DNA from: an uncultured Spirochaetota bacterium
GTDB taxonomy: Bacteria; Spirochaetota; Spirochaetia; SZUA-6; CAVTHK01
DNA length: 64,000 bases
NCBI GenBank assembly: GCA_963734495.1
Contig: CAVTHK010000001.1
Location: 128,001-192,000 of the forward strand
Reading direction: 5' to 3'
The notes beneath the pieces are model-generated. The model was not told the DNA's origin and did no database searches. It worked only from the letters and a program-made list of their open reading frames with translations. The first letter of the stretch is position 1. Each line of letters opens with the position of its first letter. Made by a program: the position numbers and the translations under genes. Of this stretch, positions 23,834 to 40,677 are shown piece after piece.

Positions 23834-25153
23834 CTATGCGAGCAGCTCCGTCATCGGGACGCCGTCCGCGTCGGGCAGCGGCACGCCGAGGATCTTTGCA
23901 AAGGTGGGCGCCTGGTCCACGATCGGTCGACGCTCGAGCACCGCGCCGTCCCTGAAATCCGGTCCCCTCGCGATGAACACGGGTTGCGGTCCCCTGTCGG
24001 GCAGATAGCCGTGCGTGGCCATACCGTAGCGGAAATCCGAGAGGTCGATGTTCTGGATCACGGGCCTGACGCACGATTCGCTGAATGAGGTGTAGCCGTC
24101 CGTCTCGAGCACGAAAGAGAAGCCGCCGTCGAGACGCTCCTCCTTCCTGACCTCTTCGCGGGTGAACACACGCGTGAACCCGTAGATGCCCTCGGCGCAC
24201 ATCCGCGTGAGCAGGTCGTGCACTTCGCCGCGGGTCTTCGCGTCGCCGGGATCCTTGAGATACACCAGAGCCGACATCGCGTTCGAGAAGCAGTACGCTT
24301 TGTAGTCGAGCACCTTTCCCTCGGGGGAAACGCGTATGAACCCGTGATCGGCGAGGAACACGTTCGGCTTGATGATCCGGGTCAGGTTCATCTGACCGTG
24401 GTCGCTCAGCATGACGATGTTGGTTTCGTCGAGGACACCCGCATCCTCGAGCGCCGACACGAGCTGCCCGAACCAGAGGTCGACCTTCCTGATGCCTTCG
24501 GTCACGGCGTCGTTGAAGAGCCCGTTCTTGTGGCGCGCGCTGTCCATGTACGCGTTGTGGAGGAACGTCACCTCGGGTCTGTACGTCCGGAGGATGTCGC
24601 AGGCGCAGGTGACGAGAAAATTGTCGATGAACGGCTGGATCGTCACGTTCGCCCTGCCCGTCTTGACGTACGACGGGGGCAGCAGGTTCGCGTTCTTCCT
24701 GATGATCGGGATCACGGCTTCGCTCGAGCCGACGTGCCTGAAAGAGCTTTCCAGCGTGTCGCCGGGATACGGCATCCAGTACTCGTCGATGAGGTAGTCG
24801 ACGTCCGGGTGGCGGCCCGTGACCGGCCAGAAGATGGCGGCGGTGGAGTACCCGCCCCTCTTTGCGGCCGTAAAGAGGTCGGGCACTCTGATCTCACTGG
24901 CGAACCAGAGCCAGGTCTCTTCCTTGTTCCCGGTCGTGAACTCGAAATTGCTGCACAGGCCGTGCTTGTCCGGATAGCAGCCGGTCGTGATGCTCACGTG
25001 GGCAGGATACGTGACCGAAGGGTAGATCGTGCGCACCGTCCGGACCTCGCTGCCCCCCGCGAGGTGCTTCCTGAAGTTGGGCAGTGTCCTGAGAACCTCG
25101 ATGTCCTCGCGGACCAGCGCATCCACCGAAAACACCAGAAGCCTTTTCTTCAT
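23834..25153 (-). CDS. Nucleotide pyrophosphatase/phosphodiesterase (alkaline phosphatase superfamily)
   Basis: FSVDAL, PSVTYPAHVSITTG, DSARH, SDHGQ, THGY. Confidence 0.9.
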   Translation of the reverse strand: MKKRLLVFSVDALVREDIEVLRTLPNFRKHLAGGSEVRTVRTIYPSVTYPAHVSITTGCYPDKHGLCSNFEFTTGNKEETWLWFASEIRVPDLFTAAKRGGYSTAAIFWPVTGRHPDVDYLIDEYWMPYPGDTLESSFRHVGSSEAVIPIIRKNANLLPPSYVKTGRANVTIQPFIDNFLVTCACDILRTYRPEVTFLHNAYMDSARHKNGLFNDAVTEGIRKVDLWFGQLVSALEDAGVLDETNIVMLSDHGQMNLTRIIKPNVFLADHGFIRVSPEGKVLDYKAYCFSNAMSALVYLKDPGDAKTRGEVHDLLTRMCAEGIYGFTRVFTREEVRKEERLDGGFSFVLETDGYTSFSESCVRPVIQNIDLSDFRYGMATHGYLPDRGPQPVFIARGPDFRDGAVLERRPIVDQAPTFAKILGVPLPDADGVPMTELLA

Positions 25154-25607: not shown

Positions 25608-27625
25608 CTATGTCCCGGTCCGCCCGAACGCTTCGGCGACCTGCGCGCCCTTGCGCACGTAGACCGGGATGCGGGCGAGCGGGGCCTCGACCAGCAGCCA
25701 CTCGCCCGAGGGCGGCGTCTTGCCGGTCCAGGCGTCCACCCAGACGGCACCTGCCGGCAGGTAGACGCGGCGCGACCGCGCTCCGTGCGCGGTCACGGGG
25801 GCGGCCAGAATGTCCGGCCCGAACAGCAGCTCGTCGTCGATGTCGTACAGCGGGGCCTCGCCGGGGTAATCGAAGAAGACCGGTCGCATGGGGGGGACGC
25901 CCGTCGTCGCGGCGGCCTTCATTTGATCCTTGATGTAGGGACGCAGGCGCTCGCGGAGGAACAGCAGCCCCTTGATGATCTCGTACGCCTCGTCGCCGAA
26001 GGACCAGATCTCGTTCGGGCCGGCGTTCTTGAGGTCCCACGAGTTGCGGAACCCGTGCAGACGGAAGACCGGGCAGAAGAGGCCCCACTGGAACCAGCGC
26101 ACGATGAGCTCGCGGAACGCCGGGTCGGAGACGTCGCCGCCGAAGAAGCCGCCGATGTCGGTCGTCCACCAGGGGATGCCGGCCATGGCCATGTTGAGCC
26201 CGTTCTTGACCTGCTGCGCGAGCACCTCGAAGGTCGACGAGATGTCGCCGGACCACACGCACGCGCCGTACTTCTGGCTGCCGGCCCACGCGCTGCGGCA
26301 GAGGTTGATCGGGAGCTCCTCGCCGGCCGCCTTCATCCCTTCGTAAAAGGCACGCTCTTCGTACAGGGGATAGAGCGACGACACCTTGGCGCCGTTGCCG
26401 ATCGCATAGCGCATGTTGTGCGTGTCGTACGGGTTGACCTCGGGCTCGCACTCGTCGAGCCAGAACAGGCGCACGCCGCGGTCCCGGTAGTTGCGCTTGA
26501 CGATGTCCCAGACATAGCGCCGCGCCTCGGGGTTCGTGAAGTCGACGAAGTGCAGGTACTTCACGCCGGCGTAGGTGTCGGTGAAGCGCATGAAGACCGG
26601 GAGGCTCGCCTCCGCCCGCACGAGGTAGCCGCGGTCGAGCATCTCCTGGAAGTGCGGAGCTGTCGCCGTTGACCGTGGGCCAGATCGAGACCATGGTCTC
26701 GATGCCCATGCTCCTTGAGCTCCCGGAGCATGCCCTCGGGGTCGGGCCAGCACTTCGGGTCGAAGTCCCACTCGCCCATCATGGCCCAGTGGAAGAAGTC
26801 GATGACGATCACCGACATCGGCAGGCCGCGCTTCTTGTGCTCCCGGGCTGTTTCCATGAGCTCGTCGCGGTTCCTGTAGCGCAGCTTGCACTGCCAGAAA
26901 CCCATGGCCCAGTCGGGCATCATGGTCGGGAAGCCCGTGAGGCGCGCGTAGTTCTCCGCGACCTCCGCCGGCGTCCCGCCGCCTAACACGAAGTAGTCGA
27001 GCTGGTCGGTCTTCTCCGCGACCCAGTACGTGCCGTTGGCGGCGAGCTCGACGCGGCCGTACGCCGGGTTGTTCCAGAAGAAGCCGTAGCCCTTCGACGA
27101 GTACGTCACGGGGACGACCGTGTGCGAGTTCATCTGGCGCAGCTCGAGGACGCACCCCTTGAGGTTCAGAAACCCGTTCTGGTTGTGGCCGAGGCCGTAG
27201 AGCTTCTCCGCCGGGTCCGCCCGGAAGCGCGCCTCGACGCGGAAGCTGCCGGGCTCGATGCCGCGCAGGCTGTGGCCGGGGTCGGGCAGGACGCCGAGGG
27301 AGCGCTTTTCCTCGAGCAGCGTGCGGCCGCTACGGGCCTGAAAGAACCGCAGCGGCGCCTCGTCGCCGTTGAATGCGAACGCGTACGCCTTGTCGATCGC
27401 GACGCCGATCCTGCCGTTGACGAGCGTGATCTCCTTGTCCGTCTCGGCGACCTGGGGGGCGAGTGACTCGTCCTTCGCGTTGATCGCCCAGTCGAAAGGC
27501 TCGAAGCTGTCGGCCAGGGTGGCGCGCACGCGGATGCAGTCGCGGCTCCACGCCTCCACCCTCAGCGTCTCGCCCCGGTAGCGCCGCTCGAAGTAGTCGC
27601 GGCCCGAGCCGAAGAGAGCAGGCAT
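25608..27625 (-). CDS. Glycoside hydrolase family 31 (alpha-xylosidase-like), frameshifts near 26710 and 26655
   Basis: LYGLG, GFWQCKLRY, VIDFFHW, WLDECEPE nucleophile, WSGD acid/base, TDIGGF, FRLHG. Confidence 0.92.
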
Positions 27626-27635
27626 AGGGCTCCTC

Positions 27636-28862
27636 CTATCGCGGTTGAGAGCGGATCGGCGACTCTCCGAGCGAGAGCGCCACGACGACGCACAGCGCCG
27701 TGAGCAGGACCAGCCCGAGCAGCGGCGGCGCCATCGAGCCCCCCGCGCCCTTGAACGCGTCCATCCCGAAGATGAAGACGATGCCCGCCAGGTTCCCCGC
27801 CATGAGCAGCAGCGTGTTGGACGTCCCTTCCGGGGCCGGCAGCGTGATCTCCGCGCCATACTGGAACCCGATGGGGCCGGAGCTGAGCAGGAAGAACCCG
27901 AAGACGAAGGCCGAGGCGAGGAGGGCCGGGTACCGGCCGGCGTACGCGAGGCCGAGGAGGCCCGGGATCATTCCCGCGAGCGAGATGACCAGGAAGGGCT
28001 TGCGCCGCCGCGTCGCGTCGGACACGAGGGGCATGACGATCGCCCCCGCGATGCCGCCCGCGAGCATGACGCCCCCGGCGATCCCCGCCTGCGCGGCATC
28101 GAAGCCCCGCGGCGCCACGATCTGCTCGATCCACGTGGTCACGCCGTTGAAGATCCCCAGACCGACGAAGAAGACGAGGAGGAGCAGCACGAAGTCGCGC
28201 TTGCGGAGCATGCTCCGCAGCCCGTCCAGCACGAGGCTGCGCGCCTCGGCCCCCTCGGGCGACGGCGGCGTCGGCGGCCGCTCGCGGGCGAGCGCGGCAA
28301 AGGCGGCGGCCGCCGCCGCCGAGGCGACGCCCCACACGAGGAGCATGCCCCGCATGCCCGCCGCGGCGAGGAGGACGGGCGTGACGGCCACGCCGGCGAG
28401 GATGCCGAGGTAGATCGCCAGCGTCCCCAGGCCGGCTGCCGTCGCCCGCTCCCGCGGCGGGAACCAGTGCGCCGCCATCTTCGTGATCGCGCCGAGCACG
28501 AAAGGCTGCCCGACCGCGATCACGATCTGGAACGCGAACACCGCCGCAAAGCTCGCGGCGAAGATTCCGCGACCGAGCGCCCCGACCGCGGTCAGGAGCG
28601 CGCCGATCGTGACCGCGGCGCGGAAGCCCAGCGAGTCGATCGCCCAGGCCGAGGGCAGGAAGATGAGGACGTAGACGGCCATGAAGCTCAGCGAGAGCAG
28701 CCCGACCGCCAGCTCGCCGGCCCCGTAGAACGCGGCGGTGTCCGTGGTGATCGCGGCGAAGGTGATCCAGCAGAGCTGGTTCAGCGCGGTCACGGCCATG
28801 AACACGGCCAGCACGACCCAGCGGTAGCCGTAGACCTTCGGGACCGGAGGCCTGTCGCTCAT
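27636..28862 (-). CDS. MFS transporter
   Basis: YRWVVL, about 12 hydrophobic segments, IDSLGFR, WFPPRERATA, SDATRRRKP. Confidence 0.9.
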   Translation of the reverse strand: MSDRPPVPKVYGYRWVVLAVFMAVTALNQLCWITFAAITTDTAAFYGAGELAVGLLSLSFMAVYVLIFLPSAWAIDSLGFRAAVTIGALLTAVGALGRGIFAASFAAVFAFQIVIAVGQPFVLGAITKMAAHWFPPRERATAAGLGTLAIYLGILAGVAVTPVLLAAAGMRGMLLVWGVASAAAAAAFAALARERPPTPPSPEGAEARSLVLDGLRSMLRKRDFVLLLLVFFVGLGIFNGVTTWIEQIVAPRGFDAAQAGIAGGVMLAGGIAGAIVMPLVSDATRRRKPFLVISLAGMIPGLLGLAYAGRYPALLASAFVFGFFLLSSGPIGFQYGAEITLPAPEGTSNTLLLMAGNLAGIVFIFGMDAFKGAGGSMAPPLLGLVLLTALCVVVALSLGESPIRSQPR

Positions 28863-34487: not shown

Positions 34488-34517
34488 TTGACGCTGCCTT
34501 GGGCGTGAGTCTAGTAT
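34488..34517 (+). promoter_or_regulatory. Putative glnA promoter
   Basis: TTGACG-18-TAGTAT. Confidence 0.5.
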
Positions 34518-36469: not shown

Positions 36470-37789
36470 TTGCCGGCGGCTCGCCGTGTGGCGTATTGTC
36501 CCTGCGAGGTCTCGGCTGCCCTGCTGTACCTTCTTCTGTTTCTTTTTTCCTTCGCCGCGGTGCCGGTCTTTGCCTACCTCGATCCCGGCACGGGGAGCCT
36601 CCTGCTCTACGCCCTCGTCGGCATAGCGACGACCGCGCTGTTCGCCCTGAGGAATCTCTGGTACTGGGCGAAGGGCAAGACGCTCCTGTCGGCGACGGCG
36701 GTCGTTCGGGCCGAGCTTCCGGACATCGTGTTCCATTCCGAGGGAGGCAAGTACTGGCAGGTCTTTCAGCCGGTGCTCGCCGGCCTGCAGCAGCTCGGTG
36801 TTTCCTGCGCGTACGTCACCCCCGACGCGGCGGACCCCGCACTGAGCTGGACCGCGAAGGGGTTCACGGCGGTCCACCCGGGCGGCGAGATGATGACGAT
36901 CGCCTACATGAACGCGATCAAGGCGGCGATGGTCGTCTCCACGACCCCGAGCCTCGACGTCTACATGCTCAGGCGCTCCCGCAAGGTCAAGCACTACGCG
37001 CACCTGTTCCACGCCCCGACCGATGTCGCGTTCTACGAGAAGTTCGCGTTCGACTACTACGATTCGCTGCTCACGGTCGGCTCCTTCCAGGAACGGAGCG
37101 TCCGCGAGCTGGAACGAAGACGCGGCCTCGAGGAGAAGCAGCTCTTCGAGACGGGGTGCCCCTACTACGACTACATGCTCGAAGAGATGAGGGGTCTCGC
37201 GCCGAGGGAGACCTCCGGGCTGACCGTGCTCTATGCGCCGGCCTGGGGCGGCAGGAGCTCGGTCCTCAAGTACGGGACCGCGCTGCTCGACGCGCTGGCT
37301 CGAGCCGGAATCAGGACCATCTTCCGCCCTCATCCGCAGTTCTACGTTTCCCATCTCGACATCATCCGGGACATCGAGAAGAAGCTCTCGGGCAGCGCGC
37401 ACGTCGAGATCGACACGAACAGGACCGGCATCAGCAGCATGAGCAGGTCGGACGTGATGATCACGGACCTGTCCGGTGTCCTCCTCGACTACGCGTTCCT
37501 GTTCGAGCGGCCGATCATCCTCGCGAACTCGCGGGCGGACGTCGGCGGCCAGGAGGGCGAGGACCTGTCCGGCGAGATCTGGGATGTCGCGGTGAGCAGG
37601 CGGTTGGCGCGCTGCCTCGCCGACGATGAAGTCGGGCGCATCCCCGACATCGTCGTCCAGGCGAACGCCGACGGCGCGCAGTACGCCGGCGCCATCCGCG
37701 CGGTCAGAGACGGGGAGATCTACAACTTCGGGCGCGCGGGCCGCGCCGCGGCCGACAGCATCGCGAGGGTGCTCGGAGGCCTCGTGTGA
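36470..37789 (+). CDS. CDP-glycerol glycerophosphotransferase (TagB/TagF-like) with N-terminal membrane anchor; start uncertain (36470-36521)
   Basis: LFHAP, LYAPAWG, FRPHP, MITDLSGVLLDYAFLFERPII; N-terminal YLDPGTGS plus TM. Confidence 0.8.
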   Translation: MPAARRVAYCPCEVSAALLYLLLFLFSFAAVPVFAYLDPGTGSLLLYALVGIATTALFALRNLWYWAKGKTLLSATAVVRAELPDIVFHSEGGKYWQVFQPVLAGLQQLGVSCAYVTPDAADPALSWTAKGFTAVHPGGEMMTIAYMNAIKAAMVVSTTPSLDVYMLRRSRKVKHYAHLFHAPTDVAFYEKFAFDYYDSLLTVGSFQERSVRELERRRGLEEKQLFETGCPYYDYMLEEMRGLAPRETSGLTVLYAPAWGGRSSVLKYGTALLDALARAGIRTIFRPHPQFYVSHLDIIRDIEKKLSGSAHVEIDTNRTGISSMSRSDVMITDLSGVLLDYAFLFERPIILANSRADVGGQEGEDLSGEIWDVAVSRRLARCLADDEVGRIPDIVVQANADGAQYAGAIRAVRDGEIYNFGRAGRAAADSIARVLGGLV

Positions 37790-40677
37790 ACGCCCTGCAC
37801 GCGATCTTCATCAGGCCCGTCGAGCAGCTCCTCGAGCTCCTCTTCGTGCGGTTCGCGGCCGCGACGGGCAGCTACGGCTGGTCTCTCGTCCTCCTCAGCC
37901 TGGCGGTGACGCTCATCACGGCCCCCCTCTACTACGTGGCGGAGCGCTGGAAGATCCGCGAACAGATCCTCCAGAAGACGATGGCCCGGGACCTGGCCAG
38001 CATCAGGAAGCACTATTCCGGCCAGAAGCGGTTCTACCTCGTCAGGAACGTCCACCGGCTCCACGGCTACAAATCCTTCTACGCGCTGCGCACGTCGCTG
38101 GGCCTCCTGATCCAGATCCCCTTCTTCTTCGCGGCGTACGGGTACCTGTCGCAGTTCCGGGGCTACGCGGGCACGGGCTTTCTCTTTGTCCCGGACCTGG
38201 GCCGCCCCGACGACCTCCTCTGGGGCGCTGCCCTGCTCCCCTTTGTCATGACCGCCGTCAACGTGGTGTCCTCCCTCGTCTACACCCGCTCCCGGTCCCT
38301 CAAAGACAACGCGCAGCTTCTCCTGCTGGCGCTCGTCTTTCTCGTCGTCCTCTACGACCAGCCCGCCGGGCTCCTCGTCTACTGGACGATGAACAACGTG
38401 TTCGCCATGCTCAAGAACCTCCTGCTCGCGCGTTTTCTGCCGCAGCCCGGGCCGGCCGCCGCCGGCGAGCCCGCGGCGGCGGTCAGCCGACGCGTGCTCA
38501 CGGCCGCCGAGCTTTCGCCGTGGTACTTCGTGCCCGTGGCCCTGCTGGTGGCCGCCCAGGCGTTCTGGCAGGTCCACTTCGATCGAAGCTTCAAGTACTG
38601 CATACTCGCGACCGCGATCATCGGCGCGGCGCTTTCGTTCGCGCTCATTCTCCGGCAGGCTCGTGTGCCGAGGCCGCGGTCCGCGCGGCTCCGTTCGATG
38701 GACCTGGCTCTGCTGTGGGCGCTCTTCGGCGTTTCGGCGTACCTGCTTCTTTTCGAGAGGCGGCAGAACATCCTCCTTTCGAACGCCACGGTCAAGTTCA
38801 TCCCGGCGGTGATCCAGGACATCATCGTCTACGTTGCCGGCAGACGCCTTCTTCCCGGGGCGCCGGCCGAGGACGCCGGCCTCGCCCCGGCGCAGGCCCG
38901 CAGGATCTTCGAGGCGGCCTCCGTGTTCCTGTTCGCCTACGTCTTCGTCCTCTCCCCGATGCTGGTCTATTTCTCGTCGCCGCAGGACATCGGTATCGAG
39001 GTGGGACCCCTCCTGGCGCGCCTTGCGCCCTGGGCGATCGGGTTCTCGCTGGCGAGTGCCGGCCTGATCAGGCTCGCGGGCGGGGGCGCTCAGCGCCGCG
39101 CGGCCGAAGCGTCGGTGGCGCTCATACTGGTCGCGATCACCTACAGCTACGTGATCCCCGGCGACTACGGGATCCTCGACGAGTTCAACCTCGAGAAGGC
39201 CTTTCTGCTGGAGCACACGCCGCTCGGCCTGTTCCTGGTCGACGTTCTGGTGATCATCCTGGCGGCAGCGGCCTCCCGGTACGCGCTGCGCAGGTGGGCG
39301 ACGGTCGTGGTGCCGTGCCTGGGAGCCGTGGCGATCGCGTTCGCGGTGCAGGTCACCGTGAGCGCGGTGCGAATGGACCGCGCGGCGATCGTGGCGGCGG
39401 ATCGCGAAACCCCCGCCCTTCCCGCGGACAGCGGCGCCGTCAATCACTTCTCGAAGACCGGCCGGAACATCGTGCTCGTCATCGCGGACATGTTCAACGG
39501 CAACTACATCGGGAGGATGCTCGAGCAGTTCCCCGAGACGCGGGACAAGCTGGACGGATTCACGTGGTACCCGAACACCCTCTCGATCTCTTCGCACACC
39601 GCGACTTCTCTCCCCGGGGTCCTCGGCGGCTGGAACTATTCTCCCGAGCACATGAACGCCGTCCCCGGCACGGGGATGCAGAAGTACGAGGAGGCTGTCG
39701 CCGGCTTCGGCACCGCGCTGCTCGATCGCGGCTACGACGTCTCGATGGTCGACCTGCTCTACATGGATGCCGCGAAGATCGGCGGGGGCAAGTACGCCGG
39801 GAAGCTGCACGTCGGCAGGTCGGACGAGTACGTCGGCTACTGGAGAGGCGCTGCGGGCGGGTCCGTCAAGCGCGAGCTCGCGGGCGGCAAGGCGCGCCTT
39901 CTCGTGATGGTCACGCTGTTCCAGTCCGTCCCGTTCATGCTCAAAGCCAGGGTCTACGACGACGGGAGCTGGCTCGTGTTCCGGCGTTCGTACCAGTTCG
40001 ACTACATCGCGCGGAAGACCACGGGCAACTACGCTTACCTCGACCTGCTCCCGAAGGTGTCGACGGCCGCGGGCCCCGGCGACACCTTCAAATTCATCCA
40101 CACGCAATTCACCCACGAGCCGTTCGGGATCACGCGCGAGGGCAGGATCATCGACCGGGAGTTCCCGGATCCGCAGTCCCGCAGCTTCATCGACGGCACG
40201 AGCGCCTACTACACCGCGCGCAAGTTCATCGACTTTCTGGCGGCGTGGACGCTCTGGATGAAGCGCGAAGGCATCTACGACAACACGTTCATCGTGGTGG
40301 TGTCGGACCACAGCAACAACGCCATGGACAATGACCTGAGACTGCCCGACGCCGCCGCGGGGCTCGTCCGCAGGCACGACATCTCGAGGGCCGGCGCCCT
40401 CCTGCTGGTCAAGCGGTTCGGAGGCTCGGGCCCCCTGCGCAGGGACGACAGGCTCATGAGCAACGCGGATACGCCGGCCATCGTGCTGAACGCGGCCGGC
40501 GACCGGTCGGTCTACGGCGAGGACCCCACGGAAGGGCCTGCCCCGAGAGGCCGCGTCGTCGAGTATGGGAGCCTCCGCGACAACTGGCACGATTTCCTGA
40601 ACAGCGAGCGCGCGAAGTTCAACGAGTACCTGGTCAGGGACAACATCTACGTGCCGGCCAACTGGGAGATCAAGTAG
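37786..40677 (+). CDS. YidC/Oxa1-core fused to multi-TM region and alkaline-phosphatase-superfamily (LtaS/sulfatase-like) domain
   Basis: YGWSLVLLSLAV..APL, LLIQIPFFFAAY, FLFVPDLGRPD, PAGLLVYWTMNNVF; later NIVLVIADMF, YPNTLS..HTATSLP, THEPF, YDNTFIVVVSDH. Confidence 0.85.
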   Translation: MNALHAIFIRPVEQLLELLFVRFAAATGSYGWSLVLLSLAVTLITAPLYYVAERWKIREQILQKTMARDLASIRKHYSGQKRFYLVRNVHRLHGYKSFYALRTSLGLLIQIPFFFAAYGYLSQFRGYAGTGFLFVPDLGRPDDLLWGAALLPFVMTAVNVVSSLVYTRSRSLKDNAQLLLLALVFLVVLYDQPAGLLVYWTMNNVFAMLKNLLLARFLPQPGPAAAGEPAAAVSRRVLTAAELSPWYFVPVALLVAAQAFWQVHFDRSFKYCILATAIIGAALSFALILRQARVPRPRSARLRSMDLALLWALFGVSAYLLLFERRQNILLSNATVKFIPAVIQDIIVYVAGRRLLPGAPAEDAGLAPAQARRIFEAASVFLFAYVFVLSPMLVYFSSPQDIGIEVGPLLARLAPWAIGFSLASAGLIRLAGGGAQRRAAEASVALILVAITYSYVIPGDYGILDEFNLEKAFLLEHTPLGLFLVDVLVIILAAAASRYALRRWATVVVPCLGAVAIAFAVQVTVSAVRMDRAAIVAADRETPALPADSGAVNHFSKTGRNIVLVIADMFNGNYIGRMLEQFPETRDKLDGFTWYPNTLSISSHTATSLPGVLGGWNYSPEHMNAVPGTGMQKYEEAVAGFGTALLDRGYDVSMVDLLYMDAAKIGGGKYAGKLHVGRSDEYVGYWRGAAGGSVKRELAGGKARLLVMVTLFQSVPFMLKARVYDDGSWLVFRRSYQFDYIARKTTGNYAYLDLLPKVSTAAGPGDTFKFIHTQFTHEPFGITREGRIIDREFPDPQSRSFIDGTSAYYTARKFIDFLAAWTLWMKREGIYDNTFIVVVSDHSNNAMDNDLRLPDAAAGLVRRHDISRAGALLLVKRFGGSGPLRRDDRLMSNADTPAIVLNAAGDRSVYGEDPTEGPAPRGRVVEYGSLRDNWHDFLNSERAKFNEYLVRDNIYVPANWEIK

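Follow-up and report, generated by a model that had tools for sequence, protein, structure and literature searches.

Two overlapping genes in a 64,000-nucleotide stretch of DNA from an uncultured Spirochaetota bacterium (contig CAVTHK010000001.1, positions 128,001 to 192,000; hereafter the window) raise the question of what a TagF-like phosphotransferase and a YidC-like membrane protein could be doing together. Gene 1 encodes the transferase. Gene 2, which shares the four nucleotides GTGA (37786-37789) with it, encodes a fusion in which a YidC/Oxa1-like core is followed by further membrane helices and by an enzyme domain of the alkaline-phosphatase (AP) superfamily. An earlier reading of the letters alone, here called the sequence-only reading, had described the overlap, the TagF-like motifs, the YidC core and the AP-superfamily end, and this description holds: the open reading frames (ORFs) exist, the motifs are present, and Pfam profiles are matched by gene 1 and by the YidC core of gene 2, with a borderline score for the AP-superfamily end. 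From the distribution of the two genes, their conserved residues, their predicted structures and their neighbours, we lean towards a reading in which the pair is a conserved two-protein machine that would span the inner membrane and equip an envelope glycoconjugate with a small CMP- or CDP-activated aminoalkyl phosph(on)ate head group.

A conserved gene pair

A genome-contig scan gave 325 related stretches, the best 80 of which yielded the 70 fetched loci on which the locus counts below are based. By tblastn, a TagF-like gene was present in 50 of these 70, many of the other loci being short contigs. The association is close: 48 of 57 TagF-like genes have a fusion gene in the same orientation no more than 150 nt away, upstream or downstream of them, and at some loci, L020 and L022 among them, the pair has been duplicated in tandem as a unit. 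In a sample of 301 genomes of the phylum, 60 carry a TagF-like gene, 51 the fusion and 50 both, and the sole genome with the fusion only is 86% complete. The genomes of this sample are related and so not independent, and the counts stand without a statistic. A sorting of the TagF-like and fusion proteins into subtypes, as a look for joint diversification, gave a noisy picture owing to uncertain ORF starts. Where a TagF-like gene occurs without the fusion, it has no N-terminal anchor in 7 of 10 genomes, its match starting at about residue 60-85 (G127, G135, G221, G306, G321, G329 and G333). These observations support the view that the two genes are a conserved functional pair, and they extend to other genomes the linkage that the sequence-only reading had seen at a single locus.

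The fusion as a protein family

A protein search returned 54 clusters, the window's own included. By precomputed annotation both PF02096 and PF00884 are present in 32 of them, the window's own among these; 17 have just PF02096, 2 just PF00884, and 3 lack both. The fusion is a genuine family, and a large one. An assembly artefact, a possibility that the sequence-only reading had itself raised, is ruled out by the recurrence of the same architecture in 32 of the 54 clusters and in the 70 loci, which come from many assemblies, isolates among them.

Public databases name the relatives mostly as YidC/Oxa1 insertase. The fetched loci belong mostly to Treponema and other Spirochaetota, including the isolates T. 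putidum, T. socranskii and Treponema sp. C6A8, and outside the phylum to a few metagenome-assembled genomes (MAGs) of Bacteroidaceae and Clostridia and to Neptunomonas qingdaonensis, whose locus (L033) holds Ppm, Ppd, the TagF-like gene and the fusion. T. putidum ATCC 700334 and Leadbettera azotonutricia are among the cultured carriers. The ESM Atlas holds further large clusters with both families, for which the commonest phylum is Pseudomonadota or Campylobacterota; these are automatic labels and serve as leads only. Within its own order the fusion is sporadic, occurring in 3 of 41 sampled genomes. The 51 fusion-positive genomes of the phylum sample represent 13 of 126 genera and are concentrated in two families (22/28 and 21/38). 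Tandem copies are common, with 120 members in the 70 loci.

At several loci (L032, L055, L056, L058, L059 and L065) the fusion appears as two adjacent ORFs, for example of 232 and 698 aa at L032 and of 182 and 694 aa at L065. In some the break lies close to the boundary between the YidC part and the enzyme, and a stop codon was seen. These two-ORF genes may be real splits, frameshifts or MAG errors.

A YidC-like module without the groove charge

The Pfam profile 60KD_IMP matches residues 30-214 of gene 2 at 71.6 bits, against a cut-off of 35, and is covered from position 1 to 161 of its 163. An AlphaFold model of residues 1-240 (predicted local distance difference test, pLDDT, 87.4) retrieved YidC/Oxa1 proteins as all of its top 12 Foldseek matches in the PDB, among them the E. 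coli protein (6al2, E 3.1e-7). Template-modelling (TM) scores to the E. coli and B. halodurans YidC proteins are 0.58-0.66, and the alignment with 3wo7 gives 0.65/0.69 at a root-mean-square deviation of 3.6 Å. Profile and model together confirm a YidC/Oxa1 fold in gene 2, predicted as a five-helix core with a cytoplasmic helical hairpin. This module is the most conserved region of the fusion, at about 40-44% identity across classes, the rest of the protein being divergent.

Aligned to 3wo7, gene 2 has T42 at the groove position that is occupied by Arg in B. halodurans YidC and by Lys in the canonical YidC of this genome. That position is Thr, Ser or Asn in 37 of 37 sequences of one family alignment (A1) and Thr or Ser in 37 of 37 of another (A3), and never Lys or Arg. 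In the part of PMC8920935 available to us, the positive groove charge is described as strictly conserved in all YidC homologues. Polar residues at six other positions (S38, Q110, T156, N159, N203 and N204) are invariant in the fusion family.

The public annotation would fit a second housekeeping YidC insertase that carries an accessory domain, an explanation to which we give next to no probability. Gene 2 scores 73.5 bits with the NCBIfam model TIGR03592 (yidC_oxa1_cterm), below its cut-off of 84.3, and lies far below the cut-offs of all equivalog models; it has lost the groove charge; and the genome holds a canonical yidC (211.5 bits, in a 588-aa ORF with a large periplasmic domain) elsewhere, 540 kb away. 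The scatter of the fusion within its order tells against a second insertase as well. The canonical gene directly follows rnpA (C1:669692-670006), where the sequence-only reading had expected a housekeeping yidC to sit, and no rnpA occurs within the 64-kb window. The scores, the T42 groove and the canonical gene beside rnpA also led us to reject gene 2 as the housekeeping YidC itself.

The membrane helices and outer domain of the fusion

Beyond the YidC core the sequence-only reading had counted roughly eight further hydrophobic segments. The further helices are there, and they number nine in a model of the whole protein (pLDDT 87.4, predicted TM score 0.69), in which an α/β domain follows from about residue 548. 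With 14 helices in all, the loop charges fit the positive-inside rule at every loop. The predicted topology has the N-terminus out, the end of the YidC core inside and residues 530-963 outside, which would place the C-terminal domain in the periplasm, in keeping with the outer location assumed by the sequence-only reading.

The sequence match of this domain to Pfam Sulfatase is borderline: on residues 560-848 it reaches 24.6 bits, or 25.8 bits in the genome search, around a cut-off of 25. The fold is matched clearly by Foldseek, which for the C-terminal part gave a probability of 1.00 to PbgA, sulfatases, EptA, MCR-1 and LtaS. With the membrane part included, the aligned columns amount to 696 for PbgA/YejM (6xlp), 635 for MCR-1 (9nww) and 618 for EptA (5fgn); LtaS is matched in fold (2w5r) and weakly in sequence (2w5q, E 0.74). 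All 37 aligned family members keep D568 (in ADMF), H777 (in THEPF) and D841 and H842 (in SDH). At the nucleophile position, which the sequence-only reading had located at 39598 and which corresponds to T605, 36 of the 37 have Thr and one has Ser. Family and residues identify the outer domain as an AP-superfamily enzyme built like EptA and LtaS, with a metal site and a Thr nucleophile, and its chemistry would be like theirs. The whole genome holds 31 Sulfatase-family matches, mostly strong (up to 225 bits), which suggest that the bacterium breaks down sulfated polysaccharides. Among those that are full-length, the domain of the fusion diverges by far the most.

The outer domain might instead be a hydrolase of phosphodiesters or phosphonate esters, trimming or recycling the modification and not installing it. 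This has some support in the Foldseek matches, which include the phosphonate monoester hydrolases 2w8s, 4upk and 2vqr besides the sulfatases, and in the Phosphodiest match of some family members. We nevertheless consider it very improbable. The nucleophile is Thr or Ser, not the formylglycine derived from Cys or Ser that sulfatases and phosphonate monoester hydrolases use; the domain is joined to a five-helix membrane domain as in EptA, MCR-1 and LtaS; and the linked genes, described below, are biosynthetic rather than catabolic.

A TagF-family transferase with a putative membrane anchor

Gene 1 matches the Pfam family Glyphos_transf (PF04464) at 38.4 bits, against a cut-off of 22.1. A profile of its family, built from an alignment of 39 sequences (A2), matches the solved structures of Cps3D (8qoy, 2.7e-10), TarL (8va1, 1e-6) and TagF (3l7i, 2.8e-6), the matches spanning the catalytic C-terminal half. 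The named positions of its motifs, H181 in HAP, P257 and W259 in YAPAW, R286-P289 in RPHP and S335 in TDLSG, are invariant in this alignment.

The N-terminus is conserved as well. Across the 39 sequences the YLDPGTGS motif never varies at Y36, D38 and P39, and conservation at G40-S43 is 90% or more. The relatives come in two N-terminal forms, starting either a few residues before YxDPGTGS or with an extra hydrophobic segment whose AxA-like end directly precedes the motif, and the window's gene 1 is of the form with the extra segment. This first segment looks like a cleavable signal peptide. In either form the mature product would have a short N-out tail, a single span and a cytoplasmic catalytic domain.

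Neighbouring genes point to small amino head groups

We clustered the ORFs of the 70 loci and named the representatives by Pfam and NCBIfam. The surroundings of the pair are surface-glycan clusters, with GT2, GT4, GT25, initiating sugar transferase, Wzx-like and GtrII genes (the last in 7 fetched loci) and genes for UDP-glucose dehydrogenase and epimerases. Cytidylyltransferase, phosphonate and choline-type genes, whose linkage would fit the pathway sketched by the sequence-only reading, are present in these loci as three supply modules.

The first module makes 2-aminoethylphosphonate (AEP). A cytidylyltransferase fused to phosphoenolpyruvate (PEP) mutase occurs in 15 loci, phosphonopyruvate decarboxylase in 8 and AEP transaminase in 7, with at least one of them in 17 of the 70. 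At L074 the neighbour scores 374.8 with the NCBIfam AEP aminotransferase model, above the cut-off of 360.8, and has the NTP-transferase plus transaminase architecture of Tde1415, which is reported in PMC6697681, as far as that text was available to us, to make CMP-AEP. The second module, present in 16 of the 70 loci and never in the same locus as the first, is NTP_transf_3 fused to Aminotran_1_2, a class I/II pyridoxal-phosphate enzyme whose best match is CobD (181 bits, below the cut-off). We read it as making a CDP-amino-alcohol, on the chemistry that we take CobD-like decarboxylases (threonine-phosphate decarboxylase) to perform. The third, from another class of bacteria (L094:4762-12797, minus strand), combines a TagF-like gene, a methyltransferase, an NTP_transferase fused to a choline/ethanolamine kinase, the ethanolamine permease EutH and the fusion. 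This operon represents an ethanolamine-uptake version of the system, and its methyltransferase hints at N-methylated head groups. No tagD/tarI-type gene was seen in the surveyed flanks. A count of PntC-AEPT genes in 35 loci was dropped, as single-linkage clustering had merged all NTP_transferase genes; the AEP transaminase type is present in just 7 loci, and the remaining merged genes are NTP_transf_3 fused to Aminotran_1_2 or NTP_transferase fused to HAD.

The genome from which the window comes has its own PEP mutase fused to NTP_transf_3 (TIGR02320, 376.4 bits against 319.55). It lies at about 632-637 kb of contig C1, within a phosphonate cluster at about 626000-637000 (L091) that also contains a Ppd-type thiamine-pyrophosphate enzyme, a class-V aminotransferase resembling AEP transaminase, a second nucleotidyltransferase and an ABC-2 permease with its ATPase, with an epimerase, an asparagine synthase and a methyltransferase as further neighbours. 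To judge from its genes, this looks like a complete AEP phosphonate cluster. Apart from gene 1 the genome shows no Glyphos_transf match, a search for LicD gave none either (the genome being 83% complete), and its four CDP-OH_P_transf genes do not lie beside the phosphonate cluster. By elimination, and in a genome that is incomplete, gene 1 is therefore left as the best candidate for the consumer of CMP-AEP here. TagF-like genes also stand beside Ppm in genomes that lack the fusion (G321, G329, G166 and G152), and in two of these (G321:C11:520653-522538 and G329:C7:89260-91147) an anchor-less gene, with a match from about residue 81-85, is directly beside PEP mutase. This suggests that the TagF-like clade may use phosphonate donors even without the fusion as partner. 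On the best reading, the cargo is narrowed to aminoalkyl phosph(on)ates, with AEP in this genome, and the pairing of the genes together with the alternation of supply modules suggests one shared chemistry.

Glycan clusters of this kind might also house a pair that acts in sequence on one polymer. The TagF-like enzyme would build or prime a phosph(on)odiester unit on a lipid-linked glycan and, after export, the outer domain would transfer or polymerise that unit as an LtaS-type enzyme or a ligase. The richness of the loci in GT2, GT4, GT25, initiating sugar transferase, Wzx-like and GtrII genes speaks for this, as does the fact that TagF, TarL and Cps3D are polymerases, and an ABC-2 exporter stands beside the genome's own phosphonate cluster. 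However, the supply modules make small amino head groups and not alditol phosphates, and the tandem duplication of the pair at L020 and L022 fits decoration enzymes with differing acceptors better, so that we hold the polymer explanation to be quite improbable.

Predicted complex and proposed mechanism

We predicted a complex from residues 1-545 of the fusion and residues 36-439 of the TagF-like protein, each with its own family alignment. The ipSAE was 0.68 (0.66-0.73 in three runs) and that of the best of three controls 0.00. Between runs, agreement in contacts is 68% or higher, and the pLDDT of the partner is at least 79. The ipSAE mark was reached by 116 of 157 solved complexes and by 2 of 215 mismatched pairs, a comparison that is only rough given the use of our own alignments. 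On the side of the fusion, the predicted interface consists of the C1 hairpin together with residues 101 and 229-232. On the other side it involves the catalytic domain and the end of the anchor, at residues 52-62, 164-166, 191-195, 217-219 and 359-364. Among the predicted contacts are those of fusion residues 84, 85, 88 and 92 with partner residues 164-166, 191-195 and 217-219. The prediction supports docking of the TagF-like enzyme on the hairpin of the YidC module, and with it the coupling of the two proteins that the sequence-only reading had proposed. The pathway idea of that reading is thus supported in part, having withstood each of the tests applied to it.

We propose the following scheme for the two-protein machine. 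At the cytoplasmic face, held by its single N-out anchor, the TagF-like enzyme, placed in its family by the matches above, would take up a cytidine-activated donor, here most likely CMP-2-aminoethylphosphonate (CMP-AEP) from the cluster of PEP mutase, Ppd, AEP transaminase and cytidylyltransferase genes. Predicted to dock on the cytoplasmic hairpin of the YidC-like module, it would transfer the head group to a lipid of the membrane, and this lipid, once loaded, would reach the outer leaflet. The natural candidate for the conduit is the YidC-like groove, in which the usual positive charge is lost and invariant polar residues are kept. Finally, the AP-superfamily domain, with its metal site and T605, would detach the head group from its lipid and hand it on to a glycan or glycolipid of the surface, much as EptA, LtaS and OpgB do with the head groups of ordinary phospholipids. 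Other lineages would use the same pair with other supply modules, probably with donors of the CDP-ethanolamine type or CDP-amino-alcohols.

It is plausible that the YidC module flips lipid; according to the available part of PMC11047089, glycerophospholipids are scrambled in vitro by the purified E. coli protein. We speculate further that the YidC/Oxa1 fold has been repurposed as a whole. Its hairpin would dock the loader and its uncharged polar groove would pass a head-group lipid, such as an AEP-lipid, to the attached periplasmic transferase, which would make the pair a self-contained synthase, translocase and transferase. This stronger version is tentative, and we regard it as possible rather than probable.

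The module could instead serve as a scaffold or private insertase. Without transporting lipid, it would insert or hold the N-out anchor of its partner, or aid the folding of its own nine helices and periplasmic domain, and the two enzymes would act in ordinary ways, the TagF-like one modifying a lipid-linked glycan inside and the outer domain adding a head group from bulk phospholipid. With its short N-out tail, its single span and either no signal peptide or an AxA-type one, the TagF-like partner is of the classical YidC client type; the predicted interface is the C1 hairpin, the partner-engaging part of YidC; and EptA and LtaS need no dedicated donor synthesis. Set against this are the loss in 37 of 37 members of the positive groove residue that PMC8920935 describes as strictly conserved in YidC homologues, the presence of a housekeeping YidC for insertion, and the co-occurrence in 50 of 51 genomes with alternating supply modules, which suggests one shared chemistry and not two independent ones. 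On balance we judge the scaffold or insertase explanation to be unlikely.

Several observations nonetheless weigh against a head-group machine as we describe it. The same data are compatible with a YidC module that acts as scaffold or insertase, and the score of the complex expresses how confident a model is and does not measure anything. The pairing has gaps: in a genome of the same genus (G001) the TagF-like gene and the fusion are on different contigs, the TagF-like gene and a glutamine-synthetase-like (GS-like) gene being syntenic with the window there, and L015, at 50% identity, has no TagF-like gene within 8 kb. The outer enzyme also exists without the YidC module, as proteins of about 700-770 aa, so that the module is not indispensable to the fold. 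The supply is patchy too. No supply gene is present in the flanks of 21 of the 47 loci of at least 12 kb, and a Ppm match in just 16 of the 51 fusion-positive genomes means that AEP is not the general donor. In the present genome the phosphonate cluster lies 467 kb from the window, and the four CDP-OH_P_transf genes, none of them adjoining that cluster, could consume CMP-AEP instead. Finally, TagF-family enzymes normally modify lipid-linked glycans directly, which would leave no need for a second transferase.

Comparison with known systems

Each part of the proposed machine has a known counterpart from which it departs. In EptA, MCR-1 and PbgA/YejM, as in gene 2, a five-helix membrane domain precedes a periplasmic domain of the AP superfamily, which has a metal site and a Thr nucleophile. 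Their identity to gene 2 is just 12-13%, however, and the fusion adds the YidC module, four N-terminal helices and an obligate pairing with a CDP-type transferase of the cytoplasm. The head group that EptA transfers comes from bulk phosphatidylethanolamine. LtaS and OpgB are likewise Thr-nucleophile enzymes of the AP superfamily, and they pass a phospho-head group of a membrane lipid to an acceptor outside the cytoplasm; nothing here points to polymerisation, and the fusion, unlike them, is linked to genes for amino-phosph(on)ate donors and not to glycerol phosphate. Gene 1 resembles TagF, TarL and Cps3D, with a Pfam score above the cut-off and a profile match over the catalytic half that includes the R-x-H-P motif, but it is much shorter and has an N-out anchor with the invariant YxDPGTGS, and its supply genes point to CMP-AEP or a CDP-amino-alcohol rather than CDP-glycerol or CDP-ribitol. 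With YidC and Oxa1 the module of gene 2 shares the full five-helix core and cytoplasmic hairpin, above the Pfam cut-off. It differs from them in its groove of Thr, Ser or Asn in 37 of 37 members, in being fused to an enzyme, in lying away from rnpA and in its sporadic occurrence within the order.

As a pathway, the proposed machine is analogous to the GtrB/GtrA/GtrII and ArnC/ArnEF/ArnT systems, in which a lipid is loaded in the cytoplasm, translocated and used for transfer in the periplasm. The proposed pair would follow the same load-flip-transfer logic with other protein families, flipping and transfer residing in one polypeptide on which the loader docks. The Pnt and Lic pathways (PntC, LicC, LicD) share the logic of cytidylyl activation, and PntC-AEP transaminase fusions like Tde1415 occur in the same loci as the pair, whereas the candidate here is a TagF-like enzyme with the fusion, and a LicD match was not found in the 83%-complete genome. 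In the available part of PMC6697681, the steps after Ppm and CMP-AEP are called "enigmatic", and LicD-like enzymes or glycosyltransferases are named there as the machinery for cell-wall glycans in the gene neighbourhoods concerned. A CDP-glycerate route to the sphingolipid head group of Caulobacter, as proposed in the portion of PMC12275187 available to us, is a loose precedent for cytidine-activated loading of a lipid. We found no later paper that identifies the transferase after CMP-AEP, the supplements of phosphonate papers not being covered, and none of the transferase terms that we looked for is present in PMC8931226. Nor did we find a published functional study of the fusion or of the pairing, in a search that did not cover subscription-only papers and supplements.

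Gene layout and surroundings

The G+C content of the window is about 68-70%. Codon-position GC marks three co-directional genes, the GS-like gene followed by genes 1 and 2 (Table 1), and the G+C of third codon positions, 0.90-0.92 in genes 1 and 2, is of the coding type. The promoter-like site upstream of the GS-like gene was called by consensus match alone, in a scan that gave 2 sites against 0.3 expected, and is a possible start of a three-gene transcript comprising the GS-like gene, gene 1 and gene 2. A terminator scan between the genes gave matches no more numerous than in shuffles.

Table 1. Coordinates of the genes and features in the window (residue numbers refer to the encoded proteins)
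Feature	Position	Strand	Description or basis
Gene 1	36470..37789	+	TagF-family (Glyphos_transf) phosphotransferase, 439 aa from a TTG start
N-terminal hydrophobic segment of gene 1, ending VPVFA	36470..36574	+	Hydropathy; looks like a cleavable signal peptide, cut between VPVFA and YLDPGTGS
YLDPGTGS motif (residues 36-43), then one membrane helix (42-60)	36575..36649	+	Conservation and hydropathy
RPHPQ motif, R286-Q290	37325..37339	+	TagF-type active site; invariant in A2; aligns with the KMHP and RGHH motifs of TarL and Cps3D
Gene 2	37786..40677	+	Fusion, 963 aa: YidC-like core, 4 linker helices, 5-helix LtaS/EptA/PbgA-like membrane domain, periplasmic AP-superfamily domain
YidC/Oxa1-like module, residues 1-217	37786..38436	+	60KD_IMP match, domain model, Foldseek; groove Arg/Lys position is T42
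C1 cytoplasmic hairpin, residues 69-92	37990..38061	+	Predicted docking site: 69, 72-73, 75-77, 81, 83-85, 87-88, 92
Nine membrane helices, residues 240-529	38503..39372	+	AlphaFold 2 helices; the last five resemble the membrane domain of PbgA, EptA and MCR-1
Periplasmic AP-superfamily domain (predicted location)	39427..40677	+	D568 39487-39489, T605 39598-39600, H777 40114-40116, D841-H842 40306-40311
Promoter-like site	34488..34517	+	TTGACG-18-TAGTAT, 9/12 consensus matches; upstream of the GS-like gene
Glutamine-synthetase-like gene, 630 aa	34541..36433	+	Pfam Gln-synt_C 2e-35; 36 nt upstream of gene 1

The GS-like gene is possibly co-transcribed with gene 1. Its NCBIfam GlnA score of 117 bits is far under the cut-off of 429. 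In G001, too, it adjoins the TagF-like gene, the two genes showing 80% and 77% amino acid identity by tblastx. It was dropped as a general partner of the pair, as it has no match in the other fetched loci, and is kept as a companion within the genus only. One might speculate that the GS-like enzyme joins glutamate to an amine, AEP or ethanolamine for instance. The opposite strand upstream carries an operon for an oligopeptide ABC transporter, and the genes downstream of the pair gave no informative family match when the window's proteins were searched with Pfam and NCBIfam.

Farther upstream, about 11 kb from the pair, an ORF of 439 aa on the minus strand (23834-25153) belongs to the type I phosphodiesterase/nucleotide pyrophosphatase family (Phosphodiest, 9.9e-39), which is also part of the AP superfamily. 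A GH31 ORF (26561-27859, minus strand) covers just the first 76 of the 328 positions of the catalytic TIM-barrel profile and overlaps an MFS transporter ORF (27636-28862, minus strand) by about 220 nt; this arrangement (26561-28862) may reflect a frameshift, a wrong start or a broken gene.

Significance

The pair is a concrete candidate for the step after CMP-AEP in the phosphonate tailoring of cell surfaces and, if the proposal is true, would provide the missing downstream half of that pathway. It would also mean that a module of the YidC family, its groove charge lost and its interface with a partner predicted, has a job other than general protein insertion. The label "YidC insertase" is misleading for a family that includes oral and gut Treponema and, by automatic labels, Pseudomonadota and Campylobacterota, and surface chemistry that bears on host interaction is being overlooked.

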